NCBI RefSeq assembly: GCF_003790525.1
Contig: NZ_CP033635.1
Length of the DNA stretch: 64,000 nt
DNA from: Escherichia coli
GTDB lineage: Bacteria > Pseudomonadota > Gammaproteobacteria > Enterobacterales > Enterobacteriaceae
Direction: 5' to 3' (one strand)
Position numbers and translations under genes: made by a program. Under the pieces are notes generated by a model. The model was not told the origin of the DNA, made no database searches, and saw nothing but the letters and a program-made list of their open reading frames with translations. Below are positions 19,805-62,449 of the stretch, piece by piece. Position 1 is the first letter of the stretch; the number at the start of each line of letters is the position of its first letter.

Positions 19805-20008
19805 ATGTTTGGTAACTTAGGACAGGCAAAAAAATATCTCGGCCAGGCGGCGAAGATGTTGATTGGCATTCCAGACTACGACAACTACGTCGAGCATATG
19901 AAGACCAACCATCCCGACAAGCCGTACATGAGCTATGAAGAATTCTTCCGCGAACGCCAGAACGCGCGCTACGGCGGCGATGGTAAAGGCGGTATGCGCT
20001 GTTGTTAA
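19805..20008 (+). CDS. yjiX: YjiX (DUF466-family small protein)
   Basis: 67-aa ORF immediately downstream of btsT, conserved partner in K-12. Confidence 0.85.
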
Positions 20009-20018
20009 TGGAGAGAGC

Positions 20019-20975
20019 ATGAACCCGATTGCAGTTACCCTACTCACCGGTTTTTTAGGCGCGGGCAAAACCACCCTGCTGCGCCATATTCTTAATGAAC
20101 AGCACGGCTACAAAATTGCCGTGATTGAAAACGAATTCGGCGAAGTCTCCGTTGATGATCAACTGATTGGCGATCGCGCCACGCAGATCAAAACGCTGAC
20201 CAACGGCTGCATCTGTTGTTCGCGCTCCAACGAGCTGGAGGACGCGCTACTCGACCTGCTGGATAATCTCGACAAGGGCAATATTCAGTTCGACCGTCTG
20301 GTCATTGAATGCACAGGCATGGCCGATCCCGGCCCGATTATTCAGACCTTTTTCTCCCATGAGATTTTATGCCAGCGTTACCTGCTGGACGGCGTGATTG
20401 CGCTGGTGGATGCGGTACATGCCGATGAGCAGATGAACCAGTTCACCATCGCCCAGTCACAGGTTGGCTACGCCGACCGTATTCTGCTGACTAAAACCGA
20501 CGTCGCAGGTGAAGCAGAAAAACTGCGCGAACGCCTGGCACGCATCAACGCCCGCGCACCGGTCTACACCGTCACCCACGGCGACATCGACCTGGGCCTG
20601 TTGTTCAACACCAACGGTTTTATGCTGGAAGAAAACGTCGTCAGCACCAAACCGCGTTTCCACTTTATCGCGGATAAACAAAACGATATTTCGTCGATTG
20701 TGGTGGAACTGGATTACCCGGTAGATATCAGCGAAGTTTCCCGCGTGATGGAAAACCTGCTGCTGGAATCGGCGGATAAACTGCTGCGTTACAAAGGGAT
20801 GCTGTGGATTGACGGCGAACCTAACCGCCTGCTGTTCCAGGGTGTCCAGCGCCTCTACAGCGCCGACTGGGACAGGCCATGGGGCGATGAAAAACCGCAT
20901 AGCACGATGGTGTTTATCGGGATTCAGCTGCCGGAGGAAGAGATTCGGGCGGCGTTTGCGGGGTTAAGGAAGTAA
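20019..20975 (+). CDS. yjiA: Zn-associated P-loop GTPase YjiA (CobW/COG0523 family)
   Basis: Start at MNPIAVTLLTGFLGAGKTTLL (P-loop), 318 aa; CxCC motif NGCICCS. Confidence 0.9.
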   Translation: MNPIAVTLLTGFLGAGKTTLLRHILNEQHGYKIAVIENEFGEVSVDDQLIGDRATQIKTLTNGCICCSRSNELEDALLDLLDNLDKGNIQFDRLVIECTGMADPGPIIQTFFSHEILCQRYLLDGVIALVDAVHADEQMNQFTIAQSQVGYADRILLTKTDVAGEAEKLRERLARINARAPVYTVTHGDIDLGLLFNTNGFMLEENVVSTKPRFHFIADKQNDISSIVVELDYPVDISEVSRVMENLLLESADKLLRYKGMLWIDGEPNRLLFQGVQRLYSADWDRPWGDEKPHSTMVFIGIQLPEEEIRAAFAGLRK

Positions 20976-21305
20976 TACCCTTAACCTACTAATACGAAGC
21001 GGACGAGGATAAAACCCTATCATTTTCCGTTCGCTTCACTATTTTATTTCGTTCCAACACCCATTAAAATTAAAAATATAATTCTGCCATAATTTCCTGA
21101 ACACAGATGTAATTACATTGCCACCACTCATACTTTTAAAAATAATTTATATGATAGACGTCCTATTGAGGCGTAATAGATGTATTAATTTCCAAATACG
21201 CAAACATTCTGGTACAGTCCAAAAAAGAAAAATCATCAACCAAAACAATCAGCAAATAAATTAACAACGATTGAATCATAATCAACACGAATACAAGAGA
21301 TTAAC

Positions 21306-23156
21306 ATGGCAACAATAATCCCAACAATCAGTAGCTGCAACGATAAAATTACTGCCGGAGAGAAAAGGCTGGCAAGAATTCTGGAAAGAGGACTAGGCGA
21401 AGAGTGCTGCTGTTGGTATGACATTCCCACGGGTGATAAGCATCTTCACCCAGATTTTATGATACTTTCGCCAGAAAAAGGCATTATTTTTCTCGAGGTA
21501 AAAGATTGGTTTATTACAAAAATAAAAAAAGCCAACAAGTCTAATGTGTTGTATGAGACACAAAATGGTATTCAATCTTTAAAGAATCCGATAGAACAAG
21601 TTAGGCGATATGCTTTCGAAGCTGTAAACCAGTTAAAAAAAGACCCCCTATTGTGCCAACAGGATGATCGTTACAATGGCAATCTTCTTTTCCCCTATGG
21701 ATATGGCGTCTACTTTAGTAATATTACACGAGAAGCATTAAATAATAAATTTACTCAAGAAGAGCTGCTCGGGATCTTCCCATCAGATCTCATCATCTGC
21801 AAAGACGAAATAAATGAATTCATGTCAAAAGAGGATGTTTCATCCAAAATACATTCGTTGATTAAATATGACTTCAAATGTCATGCTACACAAGAACAGT
21901 TGAACAGGATTAGATGGCACTTATACCCCGATGTCAGAATAGAAAGGGAAAAGAGAAGTAAAAACCGTGATGAATTTAGTGTCGATGCACCAACCATCAT
22001 TTCTATCCTGGATACTCAACAGGAACAACTTGCCAGAAGTATGAGAGATGGCCACCGGATCATTCATGGTGTTGCAGGTTCAGGGAAGACATTGATCCTC
22101 TATCATCGCTGTCAGGAATTAGCGAAAAAAAATGACAGCGAAAAGCCAATTCTTGTCATTTGCTACAATATTACTTTAGCCAAAAAACTTCGGTCGATGT
22201 TCATCAATCATCCCTTTGCAGAGAAAATAAAGGTTAAAAATTTTCATGCTTGGTGTTTCCAACAAATTAAAGAAAACAAGATCACTATTCCAGAAGGGGA
22301 TAATATTTTTGAAAATATGGAGCTAGCGTTGACTGATGGTTTCAAGACAGGAAAAATAAAACCAGAACAATACAGCGCTGTATTAATTGATGAAGGACAT
22401 GATTTTAAGCCAGAATGGTTAAAAATCCTGGCAAAAATGACTGACTCTCAGGACGAGAATTTGCTATTCCTTTATGATGATGCTCAGTCAATTTACCAAA
22501 AAAAGAAAGCATTAGACTTTACACTGTCCAGCGTAGATATTAAAGCGACAGGACGCACAACCATTCTTAATATAAATTATAGAAACACACAGCAAATCCT
22601 ACACTTTGCCAGTTGCATTGCATTTAATTATCTTAATAGCCATATCGATAGTTCTTTAACCTATCATAAACCTGCTGCGGGAGGAATGAATGGCGATTAT
22701 CCCAACCTTGAACATTTCGACACACAGGACGAAGAAATAGCACGAGCAGTCGAATGGATTACAGAGCAAAATGAACAAGGGATTCCGTGGTCTGAAATTG
22801 CTATACTAAGTCCATCAACTCACACCCTTTCTAACTCTCTAAGCTCTGTACTTGAATCGAAAAACATCCCCTTTAATCTTATTGTAAGCTCTGCAGATAA
22901 AAAGTCCTGGACGCCAGAACAAGAGCGTATTTCTGTTATGCCATTACCCAGCAGTAAAGGACTTGAGTTTCACTCAGTTGTCATTATTGATGCAGCGAGA
23001 ACACGGGATAATAGCGATGATTTGAGTGAGGATATAAAGAGACTCTATGTAGGTTTTACCCGAGCACGTTGCAATCTCTTGGTAACCTTGCACGGTGAAG
23101 GTGCGTTAAATGAGCATCTACTAAAAACCTATGAGCAAAGCCCACAATATATGTAA
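21306..23156 (+). CDS. NERD-domain nuclease fused to SF1 (UvrD-like) helicase; candidate single-gene anti-phage protein (Nhi-like architecture)
   Basis: 616 aa; NERD/PD-(D/E)xK-like N-terminus (HPDFMILSPEKGIIFLEVKDW); Walker A GVAGSGKT; Walker B VLIDEGHDF; UvrD_C-like RLYVGFTRARCNLLV; sits in an AT-rich block in the slot K-12 uses for mrr-hsdRMS. Confidence 0.75.
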   Translation: MATIIPTISSCNDKITAGEKRLARILERGLGEECCCWYDIPTGDKHLHPDFMILSPEKGIIFLEVKDWFITKIKKANKSNVLYETQNGIQSLKNPIEQVRRYAFEAVNQLKKDPLLCQQDDRYNGNLLFPYGYGVYFSNITREALNNKFTQEELLGIFPSDLIICKDEINEFMSKEDVSSKIHSLIKYDFKCHATQEQLNRIRWHLYPDVRIEREKRSKNRDEFSVDAPTIISILDTQQEQLARSMRDGHRIIHGVAGSGKTLILYHRCQELAKKNDSEKPILVICYNITLAKKLRSMFINHPFAEKIKVKNFHAWCFQQIKENKITIPEGDNIFENMELALTDGFKTGKIKPEQYSAVLIDEGHDFKPEWLKILAKMTDSQDENLLFLYDDAQSIYQKKKALDFTLSSVDIKATGRTTILNINYRNTQQILHFASCIAFNYLNSHIDSSLTYHKPAAGGMNGDYPNLEHFDTQDEEIARAVEWITEQNEQGIPWSEIAILSPSTHTLSNSLSSVLESKNIPFNLIVSSADKKSWTPEQERISVMPLPSSKGLEFHSVVIIDAARTRDNSDDLSEDIKRLYVGFTRARCNLLVTLHGEGALNEHLLKTYEQSPQYM

Positions 23157-23173
23157 AAATGATAAATTATCTC

Positions 23174-23205
23174 CATAACGCCCGGTAACGCTGTACCGGG
23201 CGTTA
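23174..23205 (+). terminator. Perfect 13-bp stem-loop downstream of NERD-helicase gene
   Basis: ataacgcccggta-acgctg-taccgggcgttat, 18 nt after stop; no strong T-run, so may be a structural element rather than a classic terminator. Confidence 0.5.
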
Positions 23206-23288
23206 TGAATGTATATCTAAGATATTAGTCACGCCTGATAGCCGCTACCAAAAACGCCATCATCTCCCTCTCATCTTTGCTGTGATAA

Positions 23289-23594
23289 AAGCGTACCATT
23301 TTGCTGTTAAATTCCAGCGCTTTAGCCACTGGAATTAACAAGTTCAAACTTCCGACAACGAAGTTCCAGTTATTACAAAAATTACTGGCAAAAGAGATGA
23401 AAAGCGTAGTTGACAACACATCGAAATATACTGACTGGAGTAAACGCGATGATATTAAAGCGAAACTGAAAGTTGAACTTATTCTGCTTCTACACAAGCA
23501 TAAGTTCCCGCCAGTAGCGAATGATGATGTTTATATGGGTGTGCTGGCACAGGCAGAGAATTTTAAAGAACATCATATGAGTGCTTTAAATTAA
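23289..23594 (+). pseudogene. Frame-closed 3' gene fragment, possibly the C-terminal domain of a type I restriction HsdR subunit
   Basis: Open frame begins straight after a TAA with no ATG or SD (track ORF 23301..23594 opens on TTG); helical, K/E-rich sequence ...VDNTSKYTDWSKRDDIKAKLKVELILLLHKHKFPPV... that I associate with HsdR C-termini (recollection, not verified). Confidence 0.3.
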
Positions 23595-23602
23595 TTATGA
23601 AG

Positions 23603-23628
23603 GCCGGATACACTTTGTTATCCGGCCA
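23603..23628 (+). terminator. Hairpin after the gene fragment
   Basis: ggccggata-cactttgt-tatccggcc, 9-bp stem, 8 nt after the fragment stop. Confidence 0.45.
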
Positions 23629-23713
23629 TTGTGAATTAACGTTAATTTCTCTTCCAGATATTTCCAGTAACGCTTTTATTATTTTCTATTTTTAGCTGGA
23701 CTTTCCCTGTATT

Positions 23714-23733
23714 TACTGATGATATGTCCAGGT
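23714..23733 (+). promoter_or_regulatory. Candidate LexA (SOS) box upstream of symE
   Basis: tactgatgatatgtccaggt contains CTG-N10-CAG about 80 nt upstream of symE ATG; K-12 symE is SOS-inducible. Confidence 0.45.
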
Positions 23734-23769
23734 ATTTAGCGCGGTGCGAATGTGCGCCAACACACCCGC

Positions 23770-23850
23770 ACCGCTCATCACAATCACTATTTATGGAGAA
23801 TAGTAATCATGACTGACACGCATTCTATTGCACAACCGTTCGAAGCAGAA
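23770..23850 (-). ncRNA. symR: SymR antisense sRNA (antitoxin) opposite the symE 5' end; position approximate
   Basis: Inferred from K-12 arrangement, where SymR is encoded antisense across the symE start; not independently visible in sequence. Confidence 0.4.
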
Positions 23851-24150
23851 GTCTCCCCGGCAAATAACCGTCAATTAACCGTGAGTTATGCGAGTCGCTA
23901 CCCGGATTACAGCCGTATTCCCGCCATCACCCTGAAAGGTCAGTGGCTGGAAACCGCCGGTTTTGCTACCGGCACGGCGGTAGATGTCAAAGTGATGGAA
24001 GGCTGTATTGTCCTCACCGCCCAACCACCCACCGCCGAAGAGAGCGAACTGATGCAGTCACTGCGCCAGGTGTGCAAGCTGTCAGCGCGTAAACAAAAGC
24101 AGGTGCGGGAATTTATTGGGGTGATTGCCGGTAAACAGAAAGTCGCCTGA
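23809..24150 (+). CDS. symE: SOS-induced toxin SymE (AbrB/SpoVT-fold endoribonuclease-like)
   Basis: In-frame ATG within ORF 23752..24150 gives [30 protein letters not shown]..., 113 aa, recognised as SymE. Confidence 0.9.
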
Positions 24151-49097: not shown

Positions 49098-50501
49098 TCA
49101 GGCCTTTGCTTCGTTGAAGCGCAGTAAACGGAAACCTGTAGAAGCATAGATCAACGCAAATATCATCGAGCAGAAACAGAATACACAGTACGGCAAGTAA
49201 CTAAACGTCGGCACGCCTAGTGTTGTCGCCATATACAATCCGGCAGCTGACCACGGAATAATTGGCGCGCTCATGGTGCCAAAATCTTCCAGCGTTCGGG
49301 CTAAGACTAACGGTGATAAATTAAGATCTTCGAATTTCTTCATCATCAATTCAGATATAACAATCTTATTCAAACCATCAGAACCGGTAAGTAAGTTAAT
49401 GATGATCGCTAAAACACCGCTTGCCAGAATAGCGCCAAAGGCACTTTTTATTTTGTTTGCCGCACTTTGTAATGTGACATCCATCATTCCTGTTCCCGTC
49501 AGGATGCCAGCAAACATCATGGCGCAGATAATAAATGACAGGAATCCGCCCTGATTATTCAGGCCGCCTTGTTCAAGCAGTTCTTTCACAGAAGGTAACA
49601 GCGTCGTTGAATCAGTGATCATCGTCAGACGGAAACCACTCATTGTGGCCTTAATACCTTCGGCCAGCGGGAAACCTTGATACAGCCATCCAACCAATAC
49701 GGCCACGAACGCACTGCTTAATAATGCCGGTACTGTAGGCAAACGCAAAAAGGTAAAGCACAGAACAATAAGCATAGGCAGTAGCGGTAACAGACCAAAC
49801 TTATATAACTCTTTGAGCTGTACCAGCATCTGCATGCTTTCTGGTGAAATAGAGCCCGTAGAAGTATGAATCATTCCCAGCCAGGTAAAAAACAGCAGGC
49901 TAATAATCGTTGATGGGATGGTCGTCCAGAGTAGATATTTAATCAGATCATAAAGTTTAGTTTTGGTTACCGCTGAAGTCAGGTTAGTGGTATCACTTAA
50001 CGGTGAAAGTTTGTCGCCAAAATAAGCCCCGGTAACAATGGCTGCCGCCAGAATTGGAAGATCGGCATGTAAGCCGGAACCGATGCCCATTAATGCAACA
50101 CCAATAGAAGCGACAGATCCCCATGATGCCCCGGAAACATAGGACAATACTGCGTTCAGAAAAAACGCTATAGCATAAAGCCATGCGGGCGCAACCAGTA
50201 ACATACCGTAATAAACCAGCATCGGCAGTGTACCTGCATAGCTCCATGTCGCGACCATAAAGCCAACGAAAATAACGATAAGTACCGGTGCCATCACCGC
50301 CGAAATCTTATCGATAATAAACCCCTGGATTTCATCCCAGGTATATTTCAGCTTAGCCATTGCAATAATGCAGGAAAACGCCGCTGAAATTAATAAACAG
50401 ACGCTGGCAGGCCAGCCCATAACACCGATGCCAACAACCAACACGATCATCATAAAAATGATCGGTGTAAGCGCGACATAAAAACTGGGTTTTTCTCTCA
50501 T
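49098..50501 (-). CDS. NhaC-family Na+/H+ antiporter-type transporter
   Basis: 467-aa polytopic membrane protein; 14 nt downstream of FAD oxidoreductase (50516..51886). Confidence 0.65.
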   Translation of the reverse strand: MREKPSFYVALTPIIFMMIVLVVGIGVMGWPASVCLLISAAFSCIIAMAKLKYTWDEIQGFIIDKISAVMAPVLIVIFVGFMVATWSYAGTLPMLVYYGMLLVAPAWLYAIAFFLNAVLSYVSGASWGSVASIGVALMGIGSGLHADLPILAAAIVTGAYFGDKLSPLSDTTNLTSAVTKTKLYDLIKYLLWTTIPSTIISLLFFTWLGMIHTSTGSISPESMQMLVQLKELYKFGLLPLLPMLIVLCFTFLRLPTVPALLSSAFVAVLVGWLYQGFPLAEGIKATMSGFRLTMITDSTTLLPSVKELLEQGGLNNQGGFLSFIICAMMFAGILTGTGMMDVTLQSAANKIKSAFGAILASGVLAIIINLLTGSDGLNKIVISELMMKKFEDLNLSPLVLARTLEDFGTMSAPIIPWSAAGLYMATTLGVPTFSYLPYCVFCFCSMIFALIYASTGFRLLRFNEAKA

Positions 50502-50515
50502 AACTTTATTCCCTG

Positions 50516-51886
50516 TTAAAAGACTTTTACGCCATTTTGCTGTAAGCGTTCCTGTACCGTCTGAATATCTACCTGTGAAACGGTAGTGTTATTTTTAATG
50601 GCAATAGCAGCGGCAGTCCCTGCACCTTCTCCAGTGACAATACAACACCCCATATTACGGATTGTCGCATAGGCGAAATTATCTGCATCGATTGCCCGTC
50701 CGCAAACCAACAGGTTTTCAACTTGCTGCGGAATCATTACGCCATAAGGGATTTGAAAATAGTTCGCTTCAAGAGGTAATTTAAGATGACCATTTCCATC
50801 TATAAACTCAGGGAATACCCCTATTGAATCCGCATGACGTCCCTCATTACAAATATCATTTTCCGTAAGCTGGACTCGCCCAATAATATGTCTTGATTCT
50901 CTTGTTCCCACCGTCATACCGAAATTTTTTAATTGTGCCTGTTCAAATCCTGGCTGGAATTGACGCAACGCTTCAATCGCCTGCATGGCTTGCTTGCGGC
51001 CTTCTATTTCTGCACGCGTCAGGTCAAAAACATCCGTACAATCGACGGCAGGGATGCTGACAACGTTCAAGTAATTCGCATCACCATACTCGGTGACCGT
51101 ACTCCAGGAACCGCCTAACGTCACATCTTTTGGAATAATTCCTGCCGACTTTCCTTTCGCAAAGACTTTACCCAGATAAGGGCTAAACATATCGCGACAA
51201 GATTCATGAACATCATAAGACCAGTTTTTATTTTCTTCATCCGCCCCCCAGTCTCCATATTTAGGTTCCGTGCTCTTAATATTTTGCATGAACGCGTTTT
51301 TATTTATATTTGCGCAACTAAAAACGGTTGTCATACACATTAGCTCTTCGCGTTCACGCTTAATAAATGGTGCTCCGGCAAACCATGCAATATCGGCATC
51401 GCCAGTACAGTCAATAATGACATTCGCCAAAATAGCCTGACGACCAGATTTACTCTCTGTTATTACGCCGAGTAAATTATTGCCCTGCTTAATAACATCA
51501 ACGGCGGTAATGTGTAGTACGCGGCGCACACCTGCCTGTTCAAGCATTGCATCCGCAACCAGTTTGAAACGCTCGGCGTTAATAGCCTGACTATTCGATT
51601 GCGGCTCAGGGCTGGACGCCCCCATTGATTTTGCCGTTTCTTCTATTTCGCGTGCCAGTCCACCTGACTCTACCGTATTTTCATGACGCCACCAGGCAAT
51701 TGACTCGACGCCAGCCGTTGTCATCATTCCGCCAAAACAACCGAAACGTTCAATCAGCATAGTAGCTGCGCCTTCACGAGCGGCACTCATTGCTGCGGCA
51801 ATACCCGATGGACCACCACCAACAACTAACACTTCCGTGGTTGCCAGTACAGGTATATTACGAGCGGGTTCCAGATAAAATTCCAT
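50516..51886 (-). CDS. FAD-dependent oxidoreductase (paralog 1)
   Basis: 456 aa; N-terminal dinucleotide-binding VVGGGPSGIAAAMSAAREG; shares many blocks with 61055..62449 (e.g. DCTGDADIA, FDCTDVFDLTKAEI / VDCTDVFDLTRAEI, GIFPEFIDG, MRNM.CC.VTGE). Confidence 0.7.
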   Translation of the reverse strand: MEFYLEPARNIPVLATTEVLVVGGGPSGIAAAMSAAREGAATMLIERFGCFGGMMTTAGVESIAWWRHENTVESGGLAREIEETAKSMGASSPEPQSNSQAINAERFKLVADAMLEQAGVRRVLHITAVDVIKQGNNLLGVITESKSGRQAILANVIIDCTGDADIAWFAGAPFIKREREELMCMTTVFSCANINKNAFMQNIKSTEPKYGDWGADEENKNWSYDVHESCRDMFSPYLGKVFAKGKSAGIIPKDVTLGGSWSTVTEYGDANYLNVVSIPAVDCTDVFDLTRAEIEGRKQAMQAIEALRQFQPGFEQAQLKNFGMTVGTRESRHIIGRVQLTENDICNEGRHADSIGVFPEFIDGNGHLKLPLEANYFQIPYGVMIPQQVENLLVCGRAIDADNFAYATIRNMGCCIVTGEGAGTAAAIAIKNNTTVSQVDIQTVQERLQQNGVKVF

Positions 51887-52172
51887 ACTTTATCTCCGTA
51901 TTCAATAATTGAGTAAAACAATCCCCCGCGCTTATATAAGCGCGTTGATATTTTTAATTATTAACAAGCAACATCATGCTAATACAGACATACAAGGAGA
52001 TCATCTCTCTTTGCCTGTTTTTTATTATTTCAGGAGTGTAAACACATTTTCCGTCTCCCTGGCTAATAACCACATTGGCATTTATGGAGCACATCACAAT
52101 ATTTCAATACCATTAAAGCACTGCATCAAAATGAAACACTGCGATATTAAAATTCTTTCAATTTGAAAAGCA

Positions 52173-54122
52173 TCAATCTGCATGCTCAACATTTGGATAG
52201 AGATTATAGATTTTAAGCTTGCGCCATAATGTTGTACGACCAATTTTTAATACTTCAGCTGCTTTAGTTAGATTCCATTCGCAGACACGACATGTATGCT
52301 CAATAGCTTGCATCTCCAATTCTGCCAGTGAAGTAAGATGAGGGATATCATCGTCGCCACTACTGTTATTTTGTCGGATATCCAGAGGAATATTCTCTAA
52401 TCCGAGGACAAGCCGATTGCAGTTAATAAATACCTTCTCCATTCGATTTTTGAACTCGGAGATGTTTCCAGGCCAACGGTACTCAAGCAGAACTGAATTT
52501 GCGTCAGGCGTGATTGTCATTTTTTTTCGAGTGCGCTCCTGATACTTATCAATAATATCGTCAATCATTTGCTTGAGATCTTCACGACGTTTGCGCAATG
52601 GCGGAATTTCAATTTCATTCATGGAGATCTCATAATATAGCTGTCGGCTAAAAGCCCCTTGTTGCACGTACTCACGTAAAGAACTACTGGTACATGTAAT
52701 CAGGCGAAAGCGTACGGGGATCAAACGATGACTGTCTGAGCGAGTAACAAGCCCCGTTTTCAATACTTTCAATAAAACACTCTGAACTTCCCCTGATAGA
52801 TATTCGACTTTATCCAGATATAAGGTGCCATTATGAGCCAGTTCAAATTTCGATGGCGAAGGACCAACATCAGAGCCAAGAAGTTCGTGTAAGATATTTT
52901 CTGGTGATAGCATCTGACAATCTACAGAAATAAATGGCCCATCACGTTGCTCGCTCTCATTATGTATTGCCATCGCCAAACTCAATTTTCCCACACCTTC
53001 TTCGCCATTGATCAAAATCGGAGAGATGGATTTAATTGCCCGGCGAGCGATAAGTAATACCTGCTTCATACCACCTGAAGCCGCATGTAAACTGTCAAAG
53101 GTAAAATTTGCATTAGTGCTTATTTGCTGTTGGGCTATTTTCCTGATTTTGTCTAATGGATGAAGAAAAAGCAAAAACGAACCATCGCTTAACGGGCGAA
53201 GGGTAACCATAAGTTCAATAAATTCGCCACGGCATTCGAGGACAATTTGCTTTTGCGATAGTTTGTTCCGTTGTGTAATTGCCTCATTCAAAATCGGCGG
53301 AAATACGAATCCTTTTCGGATGTTCTGACCAATTAAACTTTCTTTATCAATATTCAGTAGTGTTTGTGCTTGAGAATTAACCATCGTAATTAAAGAATGA
53401 CTATTCCAACAAATAAAACCGTCATCCATGCATTCAATCACAGCATTATGCTGGCAAAGTACTTTGTTTATTAACTTTTGTTCATTCTCAATATAGATAT
53501 AATTAGCGATTTCTGTTGCACATGAATATGATGTTTTTAATTTAACAAGCTCGGCGGTAGTTTCAATTATACATACAATGTATCCATGGATATTACCATA
53601 ATAATCAATGACCGGAGCAGCGCTCATCGCATAACAATGTAGCTGTTCACTAAAATGTTCTGCTCCTTCCAGTTGTGTATATAAATTTGTTTCCCGACAA
53701 AGACTATATACATTGGTTCCAATGCCATCTTCGGCCCATGACATACCAGATTCAATTCCTAACTCTCGCAATTGACTGGAATAATCGCCTGCTGCATTCA
53801 ACGATAGAACCCAGCCGTGTGGGTCAATGATCAAAAATGCCAACCGGTCGTCACCAGCCAGGGTGAAATGGTCTTCAACAACTCTTTGTGAAATTCTAAT
53901 AAACTCTTCGTTACGAGAAAAAATCGTCTGCAATGTTTGCCCGGAAGCTTTGACAGGCGTGTTCCAGTGGCGAGGGTCACAATGCTTGAGACATTTTTGC
54001 CATGACCTCAGCATCACATGATTAGTCGAATTTGTCGCGACCCAACCATGCTTAACAAACATTTTCCATTTATTTTTTAGATCATTATGATACGACTCTT
54101 TATTCATTATAATAATATCCAT
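52173..54122 (-). CDS. Enhancer-binding-protein-like AAA+ transcriptional regulator with degenerate sigma-54 contact and Walker B motifs, C-terminal Fis-type HTH
   Basis: 649 aa; sensory N-terminal domain; Walker A-like GEEGVGKLS; GAFTGA position reads LGSDVGPSPS; Walker B reads TLYLDKV (not ..DE..); C-terminal HTH ...LTKAAEVLKIGRTTLWRKLK; AT-rich gene. Confidence 0.7.
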   Translation of the reverse strand: MDIIIMNKESYHNDLKNKWKMFVKHGWVATNSTNHVMLRSWQKCLKHCDPRHWNTPVKASGQTLQTIFSRNEEFIRISQRVVEDHFTLAGDDRLAFLIIDPHGWVLSLNAAGDYSSQLRELGIESGMSWAEDGIGTNVYSLCRETNLYTQLEGAEHFSEQLHCYAMSAAPVIDYYGNIHGYIVCIIETTAELVKLKTSYSCATEIANYIYIENEQKLINKVLCQHNAVIECMDDGFICWNSHSLITMVNSQAQTLLNIDKESLIGQNIRKGFVFPPILNEAITQRNKLSQKQIVLECRGEFIELMVTLRPLSDGSFLLFLHPLDKIRKIAQQQISTNANFTFDSLHAASGGMKQVLLIARRAIKSISPILINGEEGVGKLSLAMAIHNESEQRDGPFISVDCQMLSPENILHELLGSDVGPSPSKFELAHNGTLYLDKVEYLSGEVQSVLLKVLKTGLVTRSDSHRLIPVRFRLITCTSSSLREYVQQGAFSRQLYYEISMNEIEIPPLRKRREDLKQMIDDIIDKYQERTRKKMTITPDANSVLLEYRWPGNISEFKNRMEKVFINCNRLVLGLENIPLDIRQNNSSGDDDIPHLTSLAELEMQAIEHTCRVCEWNLTKAAEVLKIGRTTLWRKLKIYNLYPNVEHAD

Positions 54123-54500
54123 TCAAGTCATTTTCAGAACTTGTATCAGAATGCTATGCCAGTAAGCTTGATCAAACGCAATAATATCTAGTCTGGATCA
54201 TTACAAAAACAGACCTTATCAACAATGTAACCATACATACATTAGAAAGAATAACCGTTAAAGCAATAAAAAACGAATAATACATTAGATAAATTTTAAA
54301 AATGCCAACAACATCTGAAATCTTTGCGTTTGATATTTATCATTATTCAAACTGAAACAACACAGGCATACGAGTTGTTTCACTGTGAAACAGTGCAGCG
54401 AAATTTGTTCTGCCCTTTTATTTCCTCAAAGATATTTCGTCGTTAAATTCCAAAATTGACTGACTATTCAACTCAGCGTAAATATCAGGAGAAATAATGT

Positions 54501-56240
54501 ATGGCGAGGATGCGTGCAATCGAAGCTGCAGTAGAAATACTGAAAAAAGAAGGCATTAGCGTTGCTTTTGGTGTACCCGGCGCAGCAATCAACCCACTCT
54601 ATGCCGCGATGAAAAAATCAGGCGGTATTGATCATATTCTGGCCCGTCATGTTGAGGGCGCCTCGCATATGGCTGAAGGTTACACCCGCAGTCAGAATGG
54701 CAATATTGGCGTGTGTATTGGCACATCAGGCCCTGCGGGCACTGATATGATTACGGGGCTTTATTCCGCCTCCGCGGATTCCATTCCTATTCTCTGCATT
54801 ACTGGTCAAGCTCCCGTAGGAAAACTTCATAAAGAAGATTTCCAGGCCGTCGATATTGAGGCTATCGCCACGCCAGTAACCAAAATGGCTCGCACAATTC
54901 TCGAAGCGGGTCAGTTGCCGGGGATATTCCAGAAAGCCTTCTGGGAAATGCGTTCAGGCCGCCCTGGCCCGGTTCTTTTAGATCTCCCTTTTGATGTTCA
55001 GATGACCGAAATTGAGTTTGATATCGATCTCTATCAGCCACTAACCCCCTGGCAACCTCAGGCAACACGGGCCCAGGCCGTACGCGCATTAGAAATGCTA
55101 AATGGCGCCGAAAAGCCCGTCATCATCGCTGGCGGTGGCATTATTAACGCCAAAGCGAGTGAATTGTTGCGTGAGTTTGTCGAGTTAACTGGCGTTCCCG
55201 TCATTCAAACCTTACGCGGTTGGGGCGCATTATCAGATGATCATCCCCTAATGATTGGTCGCATGGGATGTCAGGCGGGTCATCGCTATGGTAACGCCAG
55301 TTATCTGGCCTCCGATTTTGTTTTTGGTATCGGTAACCGTTGGGCAAACCGTCATACCGGAGCCATTGAGACCTACACCGAAGGCCGCAAATTCATTCAT
55401 GTTGATATCGAACCTGCACAAATTGGCCGGATATTTGCGCCGGATCTGGGCATTGTTTCTGATGCTGAAAGCGCCTTAACGCTATTTATTCAGGTCGCCC
55501 GTGATATGAAGTCACGTGGAGAACTGAAAGACCGCAGTCGCTGGATTGCCGAATGTGCCGAGCGTAAACGCACAATGCTTCGTCGTTCAGACTTTGACTG
55601 CAATCCAATTAAACCGCAGCGCGTGTATCACGAAATGAATAAGGTTTTCGGACCGGAGACACGCTATATTTCGACAATTGGTCTGGCGCAAATCGCCGCA
55701 AACCAATTTTTACATGTTTACCGCCCACGCCACTGGATTAATGCCTGTCAGGCTGGGCCGCTAGGCTGGACAATGCCCGCAGCACTGGGCGCGGTAAAAG
55801 CTGATCCATCTGTTCCCGTTGTGGCAATATCCGGTGATTACGATTTTCAATTCTTGATTGAAGAATTAGCCGTCGGCGCACAATTTAATCTTCCGTATAT
55901 CCATATTTTACTTAACAACGCTTATCTTGGTTTGATTCGTCAATCACAACGTGCATTTGATATTGATTATTGCGTTCAACTGTCATTTGAAAATATTAAT
56001 GCTCCAGAAATTAATGGTTATGGCGTTGATCATAAAGCTGTGGTTGAAGGATTAGGATGTAAAGCGATTCGCGTATTCGCATCACAGGATATTGCGCCTG
56101 CACTGCAAGAAGCCCAGCGTTTGCGTGACGAATTTCACGTACCTGTTGTTGTGGAAATTATTGCTGAACGCGTGACTAATATCGCTATGGGACCTGACAT
56201 TAATAAAGTCACAGAATTTGAAGAAATTCTCGATTTATAA
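54501..56240 (+). CDS. Glyoxylate carboligase-like ThDP enzyme (second gcl-type gene)
   Basis: 579 aa; extended N-terminal similarity to Gcl as I recall it (MAxMRAxxAAxxxLx[14 protein letters not shown]...[39 protein letters not shown]); SD AGGAG upstream. Confidence 0.8.
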
Positions 56241-56252
56241 GGAAACAGGATT

Positions 56253-57035
56253 ATGGCAAAGTTTGCAGCAAATTTATCTATGCTCTTTACCGAGTATCCA
56301 TTTATTGAACGTTTTGCACAGGCAAGTCACGCAGGATTCCACGGCGTTGAGTATCTTTTCCCCTATGACTTTTCTGCAGATGAGTTGGTTTCGCAACTGC
56401 ATCAACATAATCTGACGCAGGTTCTGTTTAATCTTCCTGCGGGTAACTGGCAAGAGGGTGAACGGGGTATTGCATGTCATCCTGGTCGGGCAAAAGAATT
56501 TCAGGAGAGCGTTTCCAGGGCAATAGAGTATGCATTGGCCCTTAATTGTTCACAAGTTAATTGCCTTGCAGGAAAACATCCAGGTGGTTATTCGCATGAA
56601 CAATGTCATGAAACACTGGTCGAAAATTTGCGCTATGCGGTAGATAAATTGGCTTCTCATGGGATAAAGTTAGTTCTGGAAGCCATTAATACAAAAGATA
56701 TTCCCGGTTTTTTTGTTAACAATACCAGACAAGCTCTCAATATTATTCATGATGTAAAACATCCTGATTTGCGCTACCAATACGATATTTATCATATGCA
56801 AATCATGGAAGGGAATATTGCTACAACAATCAAAAACAACCTGAATAACATTGGACATATTCAATTAGCCGATAACCCTGGGCGTCATGAACCAGGGACG
56901 GGAGAAATTAATTACCCGTGGTTGTTAAATTATATAGACCAGATTGGTTATCAGGGATGGATTGGTTGCGAATATATTCCATCTACGACAACGACTGAAA
57001 GTCTACGCTGGCTAAAAAACGAGACTCAATTTTAA
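56253..57035 (+). CDS. Hydroxypyruvate isomerase-like (TIM-barrel)
   Basis: 260 aa; FAANLSMLFTEYPF..., NLPAGNW..GERGIA, IGH.QLADNPGRHEPGTGEINY, matching the Hyi pattern as I recall it. Confidence 0.8.
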   Translation: MAKFAANLSMLFTEYPFIERFAQASHAGFHGVEYLFPYDFSADELVSQLHQHNLTQVLFNLPAGNWQEGERGIACHPGRAKEFQESVSRAIEYALALNCSQVNCLAGKHPGGYSHEQCHETLVENLRYAVDKLASHGIKLVLEAINTKDIPGFFVNNTRQALNIIHDVKHPDLRYQYDIYHMQIMEGNIATTIKNNLNNIGHIQLADNPGRHEPGTGEINYPWLLNYIDQIGYQGWIGCEYIPSTTTTESLRWLKNETQF

Positions 57036-57052
57036 TCCCTGAGGTATTTATC

Positions 57053-57940
57053 ATGAATATTGGATTTATCGGCACCGGCATAATGGGTAAGCCGATGGCT
57101 TATAATTTACAACAAGCCGGACATACTCTTTATTTTTCAGCGCATTTTGAACCTGCACCGCAAGAGCTTATTGGTGAACGTGGCATTGTTTGCTCTACAC
57201 CGCGTGAAGTCGCGCAGGAGTGTGAGGTCATCATCACCATGCTCCCTGATACCCCACATGTTGAGGATGTTCTTTTTCATCCCAACTATGGCGTAATACA
57301 CGGTTTAAGCCACGGGAAAATTGTCATTGATATGAGTTCAATTTCCCCGGTTGCCACCAAAGCATTTGCACAACGTATTATCGCGGGAGGCGCGGAATAT
57401 ATCGATGCGCCCGTCTCTGGCGGTGAAGTTGGCGCGAAAGCCGGGACGCTTTCCATTATGGTTGGCGGATGTGAAGAGGTTTATTTACAGATCAAACCGA
57501 TTCTGGAATTGATGGGTAAAAATATCACTCTGGTCGGGAACGTCGGTGATGGTCAAACGTGCAAAGTCGCTAACCAAATTATTGTTGCACTGAATATTGA
57601 AGCGGTGGCTGAAGCCCTGCTCTTTGCCAGTAAATCAGGTGCCGATCCCGCCCGCGTACGTGAAGCTCTGATGGGGGGTTTTGCTTCCTCTCGTGTATTG
57701 GAAGTTCATGGCGAACGGATGATCAAAGGGACATTCGCCCCTGGTTTTCGAATTAGCCTGCATCAAAAAGATCTGAATCTGGCACTGGAGAATGCTCGCC
57801 TGTTGAATACCCCGCTTCCTAACACGGCTATGACGCAACAATTATTTAGCGCCTGCGCCGCGCTCGGTGGTAAAGAGTGGGATCATTCTGCGTTAATTCG
57901 GGCGCTTGAAACACAAGCCAATTTCACTATCCGTAAATAA
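57053..57940 (+). CDS. Tartronate-semialdehyde (2-hydroxy-3-oxopropionate) reductase-like, beta-hydroxyacid dehydrogenase family
   Basis: 295 aa; N-terminal Rossmann IGFIGTGIMGKPMAYNL; order gcl-hyi-reductase mirrors the K-12 gcl-hyi-glxR arrangement. Confidence 0.8.
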   Translation: MNIGFIGTGIMGKPMAYNLQQAGHTLYFSAHFEPAPQELIGERGIVCSTPREVAQECEVIITMLPDTPHVEDVLFHPNYGVIHGLSHGKIVIDMSSISPVATKAFAQRIIAGGAEYIDAPVSGGEVGAKAGTLSIMVGGCEEVYLQIKPILELMGKNITLVGNVGDGQTCKVANQIIVALNIEAVAEALLFASKSGADPARVREALMGGFASSRVLEVHGERMIKGTFAPGFRISLHQKDLNLALENARLLNTPLPNTAMTQQLFSACAALGGKEWDHSALIRALETQANFTIRK

Positions 57941-58014
57941 TGAATTAAGGGAACCACCGGTTCCCTTCGTTCACTCGTTGCCCTGCCCCATTCCCCTATT
58001 TTGAGAGACCTGCT

Positions 58015-59157
58015 ATGAAGATAGTTATCTCCCCCGACTCCTTTAAAGAATGCCTTCCCGCATGGAAAGTCGCCGAAGCGCTGGCAACCGGCTGGCGCAA
58101 GGTCCTGCCTGGCAGCCAACTGGTGTGTTTGCCCGTGGCTGACGGCGGCGAAGGCACGCTCGAAACACTCATTCATGCGACTGACGGTACGTTTTACACT
58201 AAAAAAGTCACCGGACCGCTTGGCGAATCAATACATGCGCAATACGGTATTTTAGGCAACCAAACCACCGCAGTGATAGAACTGGCACAAGCTTCAGGGC
58301 TGGAACTGGTTTCTCCTGTCCAGCGTTCTCCCCTTTATACGACGTCGTTTGGCACTGGCGAACTTATTCTCGCCGCCCTGGAACACAATATTGATACCGT
58401 TATTCTATGCCTGGGTGGCAGTGCTACAAATGATGGCGGTATTGGGTTGATGTCGGCACTTGGCGCATCGTTTACAGACGCCGAAGGGCTATCAGTCTCT
58501 GTTAATGGGATGGGGCTGGCGGCAATTCACCACATTGACTTACAGCACCTCGATCCACGATTGAAAAATGTGAAATTTATTGCAGCCTGTGATGTCACCA
58601 ACCCACTAACCGGCGATAACGGCGCGACTCGGGTTTTTGCTCAACAAAAAGGGGCCAGTGCTGACAACCTTGAGCAACTGGAACAGGGAATGAAAAACTA
58701 TGCCCGTTGCATCTACCGTTGTTGTGGTAAAGAAGTCGATACGATACCCGGTTCTGGGGCGGCTGGCGGCGTTGGCGCGGCCTTGATGGCTTTTCTCGAT
58801 GCTCGCTTACAACCGGGTATTTCGCTCGTGCTGGAAGCGATTCAATATACCCAACATTTAAAATATGCAGCATTGGCGATTGTCGGTGAAGGTAAATTAG
58901 ACCGTCAAAGCCTGAATGGCAAAGCACCTGTGGGGGCGGCCAAAATCGCCCAGATGATGGGCGTTCCGGTTATCGCAATTGCCGGGTATATCGATGATCA
59001 ACTTGATTTGAATGAGTTACGCCAGTGTGGAATCGAAGCCTGTTTTTCCGTCGTCAATGGTCCTTGTGATTTACCCACCGCGCTGAGTCAGGGGGAAAAT
59101 AATTTAATTCGTCTCGGAGAAAATTTGGCAGGGTATTTTCATGCAGTCCTGAGTTAA
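58015..59157 (+). CDS. Glycerate kinase (GarK/GlxK family)
   Basis: 380 aa; MKIVISPDSFKECL... N-terminus typical of glycerate kinases. Confidence 0.8.
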   Translation: MKIVISPDSFKECLPAWKVAEALATGWRKVLPGSQLVCLPVADGGEGTLETLIHATDGTFYTKKVTGPLGESIHAQYGILGNQTTAVIELAQASGLELVSPVQRSPLYTTSFGTGELILAALEHNIDTVILCLGGSATNDGGIGLMSALGASFTDAEGLSVSVNGMGLAAIHHIDLQHLDPRLKNVKFIAACDVTNPLTGDNGATRVFAQQKGASADNLEQLEQGMKNYARCIYRCCGKEVDTIPGSGAAGGVGAALMAFLDARLQPGISLVLEAIQYTQHLKYAALAIVGEGKLDRQSLNGKAPVGAAKIAQMMGVPVIAIAGYIDDQLDLNELRQCGIEACFSVVNGPCDLPTALSQGENNLIRLGENLAGYFHAVLS

Positions 59158-61054: not shown

Positions 61055-62449
61055 TTATGCCAGACGTACGCCCTGCTGTTGCAGCGTGTTTTGCAAATCA
61101 GGAATAGCAACCTGACGCACGGTGCAATGTTGCTGTAGCGAAACCACGGCGGCAGTGCCTGCGGCCTCACCGGTAACGGCACAACACATCATGTTGCGCA
61201 TAGAAGTATGTGCAACTACGCCTGCGGAAATACAGCGACCGGCGACCAAAAGGTTCTCCACTTTTTGTGGCACCAGACAGCCATAGGGGATCTGAAAGAA
61301 ACGCCCGGTCGTTGGCAAAATGAGATAACCGGAACCATCAATAAATTCCGGGAAAATCCCTACACTGTCCGAACAACGCCCCTGATTAAGGACGTAATCA
61401 TCAGCAATACGTATTTCCCCCTCAATAAGCCGTGATTCGCGTGTACCCAGCGTGGCGCCAAAATTGCGTAACCGTACATTTTCAAAGCCCGGAACATAAT
61501 GGCGTAGAGCGTCAATTGCCCATAATGCTTGCTGCCTTCCGGCGATTTCTGCTTTGGTTAAATCGAAGACATCGGTACAGTCAAAACCAAAGGCGTACAC
61601 CATATTCATCTGAAACGCTTCGCCGCTTTCAGAAAAGGTTGACCAGGTTCCGGCAATCGCCTGGGCGTCGCCTGGAATCACACCATCCTGCTGCGCCCGG
61701 GTAAAAATATCCTCCATATAAGGGCTAAACATCTGGTCTTCTTTGCCCGTGGTTTGAATCGTCCAGTTTTTTCCCCAATCCGCGTAGGTCGGCTTAAGTT
61801 CTTCCGCAACAAAACGGTTAAAGCGCGCCACATCGACACCTGCGCAACTGAACATCACGGTGACGCCCATCAGTTGGTCCTTTCCCCGTTTCGTCCAGGG
61901 CGCGCCTGCACGAGCAGCAATATCAGCATCCCCCGTGCAATCGACGATTCTTTTCGCCAGAATTGCCCCTCGTCCTGATTTGTTCTCGACAATAACACCG
62001 CATAACGTATCCCCTTCCTTGATCACATCCACAACCCAGGAGTGATATAACGGCTCAACGCCAGCTTCCGTTATCATCTGATCGGCAACAACTTTAAATC
62101 CTTCAGTATCTATAACTTCGCTAATTGACTGAGGTTCTGGTCGCGTGAAGCCCAATGCTCGCGCGCGGCCTTCATATTCACGACAAATCCCTTCACAATC
62201 TTCCGTCCCCGGATGGCGATACCAGGCAAAACTTTCCACACCAACCTGCGTCAATACGCCGCCTAGTGAGCCGTAACGCTCAACAATCATGGTTCTGGCA
62301 CCTAGCCGCCCCGCCGCTATCGCCGCCGTTAATCCTGCCGGACCGCCCCCGATAACCAGAACGTCCGTTTGTGCAATGACTGGCGTTTGCCGTGCACTTT
62401 CATTAATCATGTCCACCATTGGTTCCCCCATCAGATTCAGGATGCGCAA
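61055..62449 (-). CDS. FAD-dependent oxidoreductase (paralog 2)
   Basis: 464-aa ORF (start may be internal MINESARQ); VIGGGPAGLTAAIAAGRLG dinucleotide-binding motif; paralog of 50516..51886; 13-nt overlap with upstream MFS gene. Confidence 0.7.
   Translation of the reverse strand: MRILNLMGEPMVDMINESARQTPVIAQTDVLVIGGGPAGLTAAIAAGRLGARTMIVERYGSLGGVLTQVGVESFAWYRHPGTEDCEGICREYEGRARALGFTRPEPQSISEVIDTEGFKVVADQMITEAGVEPLYHSWVVDVIKEGDTLCGVIVENKSGRGAILAKRIVDCTGDADIAARAGAPWTKRGKDQLMGVTVMFSCAGVDVARFNRFVAEELKPTYADWGKNWTIQTTGKEDQMFSPYMEDIFTRAQQDGVIPGDAQAIAGTWSTFSESGEAFQMNMVYAFGFDCTDVFDLTKAEIAGRQQALWAIDALRHYVPGFENVRLRNFGATLGTRESRLIEGEIRIADDYVLNQGRCSDSVGIFPEFIDGSGYLILPTTGRFFQIPYGCLVPQKVENLLVAGRCISAGVVAHTSMRNMMCCAVTGEAAGTAAVVSLQQHCTVRQVAIPDLQNTLQQQGVRLA

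Follow-up and report, generated by a model that had tools for sequence, protein, structure and literature searches.

How a protein built like a sigma-54 enhancer-binding protein (EBP) can regulate transcription when the GAFTGA loop that contacts sigma-54 is missing, and what it regulates, is the question raised by one gene in a 64,000-nucleotide stretch of Escherichia coli DNA (the window). A 649-aa open reading frame was confirmed at 52173..54122 on the minus strand; the gene is ibeR, which belongs to the GimA island of E. coli. The mechanically defined frame reaches 54122; in RefSeq and in every orthologue translation begins at the second ATG, at 54107, which gives a protein of 644 aa. The gene order at GimA is hypT, then ibeT-ibeA-ibeR, then gcl...dhaKL-ptsP, then iraD. 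Of 5426 complete E. coli genomes, 246 carry the island, and in 245 of these 246 the ibeR reading frame runs to full length with an identity of 99% or more; an IS903B element interrupts it in one genome. Comparison with the gene of [Enterobacter] lignolyticus (pN 0.14, pS 0.83) places ibeR under strong purifying selection. The GimA regulon was still termed elusive in a 2026 paper.

Profile searches assign IbeR to the DhaR family. It scores 985.8 bits against the NCBIfam DhaR model (NF008485; cut-off 551), with model positions 8-643 of 643 covered. With the TyrR model (NF008085) the score is 144.8 bits, short of the cut-off of 576, and the NifA, NtrC and PrpR models are matched below threshold. 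IbeR is 33% identical to K-12 DhaR over its full length (E 2e-117), and ibeR is a second E. coli copy, a paralogue, of the gene for the dihydroxyacetone regulator DhaR. A 'distant' blastn search of E. coli genomes with ibeR did not reach core dhaR because the two sequences are too diverged. Pfam domains of IbeR comprise GAF (75-185), PAS (227-322), Sigma54_activat (348-504, E 5.6e-31), AAA_lid_14 (510-589) and HTH_8 (598-638), with no ACT domain among them. The N-terminal sensor is homologous to 4lrx_C, the DhaR(N) chain crystallized with DhaK and DhaL. All 12 DhaR-family sequences sampled share one recognition helix, IGRTTLWRK, which is not that of TyrR, NtrC or PspF. The gene and its domains are located as follows:

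52173..54107, minus strand: ibeR coding sequence, DhaR-family regulator, 644 aa from the conserved start
53121..54017, minus strand: N-terminal sensor, GAF-like plus PAS, aa 36-334 (4lrx_C match, E 5.1e-40, and Pfam)
52611..53081, minus strand: degenerate Sigma54_activat AAA+ core, aa 348-504 (Pfam)
52209..52331, minus strand: HTH_8 DNA-binding domain (Pfam)

The AAA+ core was aligned with K-12 NtrC, PspF, TyrR and DhaR, and the losses were numbered against PspF. The GAFTGA of NtrC and PspF is replaced in IbeR by ELLGSDVGPSPSKF (L415-S424), about 7 residues shorter, and the Walker B stretch reads LYLDK as against FLDE. At the positions of the two arginine fingers, R162 and R168 in PspF, IbeR has S492 and E498; in place of the sensor II arginine, R227 in PspF, it has S555. 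The positions taken from this alignment are:

52986..53006, minus strand: Walker A GEEGVGK, aa 373-379, intact
52851..52880, minus strand: L1 loop remnant LGSDVGPSPS, aa 415-424, at the GAFTGA position
52809..52814, minus strand: Walker B D437-K438, DK replacing DE
52626..52652, minus strand: FSRQLYYEI, aa 491-499, both arginine-finger positions lost
52446..52475, minus strand: WPGNISEFKN, aa 550-559, sensor II arginine lost

The original prediction, made from the sequence alone, had reported LGSDVGPSPS in place of GAFTGA and DK in place of DE; the alignment confirms both and adds the arginine-finger and sensor II losses. IbeR is without the GAFTGA loop and four catalytic ATPase determinants, and should therefore be unable to remodel the sigma-54 holoenzyme. 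That it is sigma-54-independent and probably non-hydrolysing, as had been proposed, fits all of the sequence evidence. The accompanying label 'TyrR type' named the wrong family and is imprecise, since IbeR is of the DhaR type by the bit scores given above. The prediction also recognized neither the named gene ibeR of GimA nor how widely the motif loss is spread. Among the 86 full-length DhaR-family homologues tabulated (two clades), none has GAFTGA or the Walker B glutamate, and nearly all have also lost the two arginine fingers and the arginine of sensor II, while the Walker A lysine is present in every tabulated member. More distant sigma-54 activators in the same table retain all these determinants. 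The missing sigma-54 loop and dead ATPase motifs are an already known trait of the whole DhaR family and not a peculiarity of ibeR.

Promoters were sought for both sigma factors. The sigma-54 pattern TGGCAC-N5-TTGCW detected the positive controls glnAp2 and pspAp at 1 mismatch each. In eight GimA intergenic regions the best match had at least 3 mismatches, and no correctly oriented site carried the GG/GC core; the earlier observation that the spacers flanking ibeR contain no convincing GG-N10-GC promoter holds. Over the whole window 293 matches were counted, compared with 329 +/- 17 by chance, that is, at or below chance. The sigma-70 part of the scan suggested for these spacers was uninformative, with 14 promoter-like matches against 9.6 expected and no convincing -35/-10 pair near the predicted operator boxes described below; inspection of the gcl leader by eye revealed weak -35/-10 candidates only.

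The dhaK-dhaR spacer of K-12 contains a paired 17-bp palindrome, TGTTTCA-N3-TGAAACA, with boxes 31-34 bp apart, which would correspond to the footprinted DhaR sites. The same pair is present at three GimA spacers, namely between gcl and ibeR, between ibeR and ibeA, and between gldA and dhaK (this last just beyond the window edge), and these three spacers front all four GimA operons. Four boxes lie within the window, each identified by box scan, shuffles, conservation and weight matrix:

54343..54359, no strand assigned: predicted operator box A, TTATTCAAACTGAAACA, in the divergent ibeR-gcl spacer
54376..54392, no strand assigned: predicted operator box B, the perfect palindrome TGTTTCACTGTGAAACA
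52122..52138, no strand assigned: predicted operator box, TGCATCAAAATGAAACA, between ibeR and ibeA
52154..52170, no strand assigned: predicted operator box, TCTTTCAATTTGAAAAG

Predicted box B is 117 bp upstream of the gcl ATG. The box at 52154..52170 lies 3 nt past the ibeR stop codon and 32 bp from its partner; these ibeA-proximal boxes are weaker, with 2-3 mismatches, and the distance to the ATG of ibeA is about 240 bp. The boxes are conserved and statistically significant. At a threshold of 3 mismatches, 0 of 300 dinucleotide shuffles produced a pair for any locus, and the boxes form conserved islands inside diverged spacers. Pairs adjoin homologues in seven other genera ([Enterobacter] lignolyticus, Citrobacter, Vibrio, Serratia microhaemolytica, Photobacterium, Klebsiella and Pantoea), of which the Citrobacter pairs miss the threshold, their partner boxes having 4 mismatches at distances of 32 and 34 bp. 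A weight matrix trained without any E. coli GimA site ranked the four boxes flanking ibeR as its top four matches over the 64-kb window, in which box pairs are limited to island spacers. The new point here is a modest one, namely the predicted box pairs fronting GimA operons, including that of the virulence gene ibeA.

The genes next to these boxes are the candidate targets of IbeR:

49098..51886, minus strand: ibeA (50516-51886) and ibeT/nhaC-like gene (49098-50501), downstream of ibeR; candidate targets
54501..59157, plus strand: gcl-hyi-glxR-glycerate kinase operon (GimA3), transcribed divergently to ibeR; candidate target for activation

The same island contains genes for a PTS-dependent dihydroxyacetone kinase, dhaK-dhaL-ptsP, 11 kb from ibeR, where ptsP is an Enzyme I (EI)-fused dhaM; GimA DhaK and DhaL are 59% and 55% identical to their K-12 counterparts. 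In Citrobacter, Vibrio and Photobacterium dhaK, dhaL and dhaM genes adjoin the ibeR homologue, and the linkage of the regulator to dha and gcl genes holds across genera. Deletion of ibeR leads to a rise in ibeA mRNA (PMC4359115), which is what binding of IbeR to the boxes before ibeA would predict, although the rise could also be a read-through artefact of the deletion.

Taken as a whole, these data are best explained by IbeR being a DhaR-type regulator of GimA that acts at sigma-70 promoters through the paired boxes and is controlled by DhaK and DhaL, a reading that we consider likely. In K-12, DhaR is described as being without the sigma-54 motif and working at a sigma-70 promoter, with DhaL as activator and DhaK as repressor (PMC10084136; PMC3162934). 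The DhaR family, IbeR included, descends from sigma-54 EBPs, and IbeR has kept the P-loop. By analogy with K-12 DhaR, IbeR is most likely a conventional DNA-bound activator and repressor at sigma-70 promoters, and is predicted to bind the paired palindromes through the family-invariant HTH domain. By the same analogy, its GAF-PAS sensor may be switched by the island's own DhaK, as antagonist, and ADP-loaded DhaL, as co-activator, which would couple expression of the island, including ibeA, to the availability of dihydroxyacetone and glycerol. Between the IbeR sensor and DhaR(N) identity is only about 30%, and therefore the partner proteins could differ. A bolder proposal, whose chances we put slightly below even, takes IbeR for a pseudo-ATPase that senses dihydroxyacetone and glycerol and directly controls all four GimA operons through conserved operator pairs, one of them upstream of the invasion and virulence gene ibeA. 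On this proposal the two paralogues would cross-talk, since core DhaR matches IbeR in both recognition helix and box, and virulence genes of ExPEC would be wired to triose metabolism and not to an 'RpoS-like' function.

Three other readings of IbeR were weighed and rejected on motif, HMM and conservation evidence. A genuine sigma-54-dependent EBP, activating -24/-12 promoters through ATP hydrolysis, would be in keeping with the Sigma54_activat match (E 5.6e-31), the sub-threshold matches to NifA, NtrC and PrpR, and the name 'sigma-54 dependent Fis family regulator' in some databases. It is nevertheless highly improbable for a protein in which GAFTGA is deleted, the Walker B glutamate is a lysine, and the arginine fingers and sensor II arginine are gone; the GimA spacers lack a sigma-54 promoter in a scan that detected its controls, and the type member of the family is described as sigma-70-dependent in the literature cited above. 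No better are the prospects of a TyrR-type protein that is sigma-70-dependent, binds a small-molecule ligand and ATP, and oligomerizes on TyrR-like boxes. Loss of GAFTGA, a PAS-AAA+-HTH layout and the 144.8-bit match speak for it; on the other hand, the 576-bit cut-off is missed, there is no ACT domain, the N-terminus is GAF-PAS as in DhaR(N), and in TyrR the recognition helix is another one, Walker B still reads DE, and neither the arginine fingers nor the arginine of sensor II has been lost. The lowest probability falls to decay, in which the degenerate motifs would mark a non-functional regulator on an island in reductive evolution. Many B2 strains have indeed lost GimA or hold it as a remnant (PMC2878320), and IS903B sits inside ibeR in one genome, but the near-invariant reading frame in 245 of 246 genomes, the strong purifying selection, the fixation of the same substitutions throughout the DhaR family, and mutant phenotypes with reported complementation (PMC4359115) all argue against it.

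A rival of greater weight, though still an unlikely one, comes from the ExPEC literature, where IbeR is proposed to be chiefly a global, RpoS-like regulator for the stationary phase and stress with targets outside GimA; the boxes would then be autoregulatory or irrelevant. Mutants in ibeR show stress sensitivity, reduced invasion and attenuation, and the expression of many genes outside the island shifts (PMC4359115), phenotypes that a narrow dihydroxyacetone regulon does not obviously explain. However, IbeR is a DhaR equivalog that does not resemble sigma factors, the box pairs in the 64-kb window occur in island spacers only, and the dha and gcl linkage recurs across genera. Altered triose or methylglyoxal metabolism, for instance, could bring about the global effects indirectly.

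A protein that looks like an EBP but has neither GAFTGA nor the Walker B glutamate carries the established DhaR signature and in itself opens no new question. IbeR has so far been discussed as "RpoS-like", and its recognition as the island's DhaR paralogue alters the picture for ExPEC. The operators predicted before gcl, ibeA and dhaK/gldA offer a testable model in which a virulence locus is tied to dihydroxyacetone and glycerol metabolism, and which would account for the published rise of ibeA in the ibeR mutant.

Among known systems, NtrC, PspF, NtrC1 and ZraR have the AAA+ fold, lid and Fis-type HTH in common with IbeR, whereas their defining sigma-54-contact and ATP-hydrolysis determinants are all absent from it. 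VpsR of Vibrio cholerae, HupR and NtrX are atypical EBPs that, like IbeR, have no GAFTGA and a non-consensus Walker B; VpsR switches on a sigma-70 promoter without ATP hydrolysis (PMC6158489). Unlike IbeR, these three are receiver-domain response regulators controlled via phosphorylation or c-di-GMP and not by binding of metabolic enzymes, and the VpsR AAA+ domain (7v2b) matches IbeR at E 2.8e-26 only. TyrR and PhhR are likewise EBP-derived proteins without GAFTGA that partner with sigma-70, that is, sigma-70-dependent atypical EBPs, but TyrR differs in its ACT-PAS sensor and its HTH, and in having kept the arginine fingers, sensor II and the DE of Walker B. K-12 DhaR (b1201), the regulator of dhaKLM, has the GAF-PAS-AAA+-HTH_8 architecture of IbeR and has lost the same GAFTGA loop, Walker B glutamate (EK in DhaR, DK in IbeR), arginine fingers and sensor II arginine. 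Both proteins have the recognition helix IGRTTLWRK, the same paired boxes in an adjacent spacer, and linkage to dhaK and dhaL. In contrast to DhaR, IbeR falls in a separate clade with proteins of [Enterobacter] lignolyticus, Citrobacter, Vibrio and Photobacterium, and the DhaM that accompanies this clade is a long one (about 794-831 aa) in which a complete Enzyme I is the fusion partner, as against the 472-aa DhaM found with K-12 DhaR. Core dhaR is present in 5385 of 5426 genomes, compared with 246 of 5426 for ibeR's accessory island, and the predicted targets of IbeR add gcl-hyi-glxR-glxK and ibeA-ibeT.

A 2.8-kb region of the GimA island occurs, at 95% identity or higher, in 246 of 5426 complete Escherichia coli genomes, and it is chromosomal every time. 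In strain SMS-3-5 the gene order is hypT(yjiE); ibeT(nhaC-like)–ibeA–regulator; gcl–hyi–glxR–glycerate kinase; BCCT–FAD oxidoreductase–MFS–gldA; dhaK–dhaL–ptsP; iraD(yjiD). This order matches GimA, which lies between yjiD and yjiE and comprises the operons ptnIPKC, cglDTEC, gcxKRCI and ibeRAT (PMC2878320), and thus the regulator gene is ibeR. The island is AT-rich (GC 0.40–0.45 against about 0.50–0.55 in its flanks). Two other stretches outside GimA, window 20001–24000 and 34001–38000, have a similar GC content (about 0.40–0.45); the latter holds, upstream of iatD, genes for a pentapeptide-repeat protein and for a protein with an SdiA-regulated domain.

The minus-strand open reading frame at 52173..54122 encodes 649 aa. 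On identical DNA, RefSeq starts at the second ATG (54107), giving 644 aa, and all orthologues start at this position with MNKESY or MDKESY. The mechanical reading frame adds five codons (MDIII; window 54107–54122) upstream of the MNKESY start, and a strong Shine-Dalgarno sequence precedes neither ATG. Five Pfam domains were recognized in the product.

Pfam domains of IbeR
aa 75–185, GAF
aa 227–322, PAS
aa 348–504, Sigma54_activat (E 5.6e-31)
aa 510–589, AAA_lid_14
aa 598–638, HTH_8

IbeR is a DhaR-family protein that lacks the sigma-54 contact loop and the catalytic ATPase residues. It scores 985.8 bits with the NCBIfam DhaR equivalog model (cut-off 551), 144.8 bits with the TyrR model (cut-off 576), and far under the cut-off with every NCBIfam sigma-54 activator model. 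Its N-terminal 300 residues resemble the crystallised DhaR sensor domain (4lrx, 4lry, 4lrz; E 5e-40). Membership of the TyrR family is thereby rejected. The original assignment to the TyrR type was imprecise: TyrR, unlike IbeR, still has the DE of Walker B as well as its arginine fingers and sensor II, and its sensor and recognition helix are different. Homologues from a search space of 5.8 billion proteins fall in two clades. The IbeR clade includes [Enterobacter] lignolyticus (77% identity), Citrobacter (62%), and Vibrio, Photobacterium, Salinivibrio and Serratia microhaemolytica (about 41–47%); the other clade, from Enterobacteriaceae, includes K-12 DhaR, which aligns with IbeR end to end at 33% identity, a level typical of that clade. 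The clades co-vary with DhaM architecture: IbeR-clade loci (L007, L008 and L010; GimA ptsP at 35095–37476 of L001, the GimA locus that reaches past the window end) encode a fusion of EIIA, HPr and full Enzyme I of about 794–831 aa, whereas K-12-clade loci (L002, the K-12 dhaK–dhaR locus, L011 and L012) encode a DhaM of about 472 aa with the N-terminal part of EI only.

Alignments with E. coli K-12 NtrC, PspF, TyrR and DhaR, and with 114 full-length homologues, bore out the absence of GAFTGA and the Walker B DK in place of DE. Both arginine fingers and sensor II, on which the original prediction had not remarked, are lost as well.

AAA+ motifs of sigma-54 activators and their counterparts in IbeR
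L1 loop: GAFTGA in activators; ELLGSDVGPSPSKF in IbeR, about 7 residues shorter
Walker B: FLDE in activators; LYLDK in IbeR (D437 K438)
Arginine fingers: R162 and R168 in PspF; S492 and E498 in IbeR
Sensor II: R227 in PspF; S555 in IbeR
Walker A: GxxGxGK in activators; GEEGVGK in IbeR, intact

The same losses run through the family. In all 86 full-length DhaR-family sequences of the motif table (P0002–P0092, both clades) GAFTGA is absent, the Walker B glutamate is replaced by K, N, Q, H, R or S, and the Walker A lysine is retained; in nearly all, both arginine fingers and the arginine of sensor II are gone too. None of the motifs is missing from the remoter homologues P0106–P0120. A few Chloroflexota-like sequences (P0087, P0090, P0092, P0098 and P0101) are intermediate: GAFTGA and the Walker B glutamate are gone, but the second arginine finger and the arginine of sensor II persist; one such cluster carries the source label Chloroflexota. 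These sequences may capture a sigma-54 activator partway through a stepwise decay. DhaR, TyrR and HupR have been described as sigma-70-dependent paralogues of enhancer-binding proteins in which a small GAFTGA deletion cost the interaction with sigma-54 (PMC3162934). The losses in ibeR are real, yet, being family-wide and stated in the literature for the type member, already explained at family level: they are the recognised signature of an established family, and the gene already has a name and a good automatic annotation.

GimA contains no sigma-54 promoters. A scan with TGGCAC-N5-TTGCW recovered the controls glnAp2 and pspAp at one mismatch and gave no site under three mismatches in the eight GimA intergenic regions, in agreement with the original prediction. 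The sole GG/GC-core match among these regions faces away from ibeA, and sigma-54-like matches across the 64-kb window were no commoner than in shuffles. As far as sequence can decide the matter, IbeR is no true sigma-54 activator. Reading ibeR as a pseudogene is contradicted by its conservation and by mutant phenotypes; the gene keeps 99% identity or more across 245 of the 246 genomes, pN is 0.14 and pS 0.83 against the E. lignolyticus orthologue, and by these sequence measures it is not decaying. In strain XDL (NZ_CP043033.1, hits H1 and H16; 1 of 246 genomes) an IS903B (IS5-like) transposase splits the ibeR match in two, and this strain is a natural ibeR knockout. IbeR has also been called an "RpoS-like global regulator" (PMC4359115), which may hold as a description of phenotype; the protein family gives this no support, and the global effects may arise indirectly, through the metabolism of the island.

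The island operons are fronted by conserved operator-like pairs. In the K-12 dhaK–dhaR spacer a perfect palindrome, TGTTTCA-TAG-TGAAACA, is accompanied by an imperfect second copy 31 bp off, and we infer that these are the experimentally footprinted DhaR sites. The paired arrangement recurs three times in GimA.

Predicted box pairs in GimA
Window 54343–54359 and 54376–54392, between ibeR and gcl; second box perfect, 117 bp from the gcl ATG
Window 52122–52138 and 52154–52170, between ibeR and ibeA; second box begins 3 nt past the ibeR stop
L001 33240–33256 and 33272–33288, between gldA and dhaK, just past the window end

Such pairs (at most 3 mismatches, 31–33 bp spacing) occurred in none of 300 dinucleotide-preserving shuffles of any locus. 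Equivalent pairs are found in E. lignolyticus (between gcl and the regulator gene, and between the latter and ibeA), in Citrobacter (gldA–dhaK and gcl–regulator spacers, 3–4 mismatches), in S. microhaemolytica (upstream of gcl and of the BCCT gene), and by the homologues of Vibrio, Photobacterium, Klebsiella and Pantoea in corresponding spacers; the boxes stand as conserved blocks in spacers diverged elsewhere. With a weight matrix trained solely on sites outside E. coli GimA, the top four matches in the 64-kb window were the four ibeR-flanking boxes. A shared operator is explained by the recognition helix IGRTTLWRK, which is identical in 12 of 12 sampled DhaR-family sequences from both clades; it differs in TyrR, NtrC and PspF. 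An in-vitro NtrC gSELEX peak at 1,250,156 lies in the K-12 dhaK–dhaR spacer (L002 5840–6066) (PMC8743547), a hint that another HTH of the enhancer-binding family may recognise this spacer. The ibeA start codon is preceded, at a distance of 41 bp, by a perfect 18-bp palindrome, CGCGCTTATATAAGCGCG (window 51927–51944), which is called terminator-like on the plus strand; the palindrome could be an ibeR/ibeA terminator or attenuator, or a site for another regulator, and is partially conserved in E. lignolyticus as CACGCATTTATTTGCG.

IbeR would act at sigma-70 promoters without hydrolysing ATP; its P-loop is conserved, a sign that IbeR may still bind nucleotide or that the loop has kept a structural role. 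IbeR would activate the operon whose start codon lies about 95–135 bp from the nearest box, that is gcl at ibeR, and dhaK in GimA, K-12, Vibrio and Photobacterium, and would probably also autoregulate and modulate ibeA–ibeT. Deleting ibeR raises ibeA mRNA (PMC4359115), which fits repression from the predicted ibeA-proximal boxes, the alternative being read-through from the deletion. IbeA ('invasin'; window 50516–51886) is itself 51% identical over its full length to the island's second FAD-dependent oxidoreductase (window 61055–62419, L001 29256–30620), whose gene adjoins that of a BCCT transporter in S. microhaemolytica and E. lignolyticus, which fits a metabolic rather than surface-adhesin origin.

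A literature search found no link between IbeR and dihydroxyacetone, and as late as 2026 the GimA regulon was described in print as elusive. The new element is modest: an operator prediction that would tie all four GimA operons, ibeA among them, to a DhaR-type switch. GimA DhaK and DhaL share 59% and 55% identity with their K-12 counterparts, and IbeR may be switched by them as K-12 DhaR is by its own. Since nearly every genome (5385 of 5426) has core dhaR, GimA-positive strains possess both paralogues, which share recognition helix and box, and this makes cross-talk between core DhaR and IbeR plausible.
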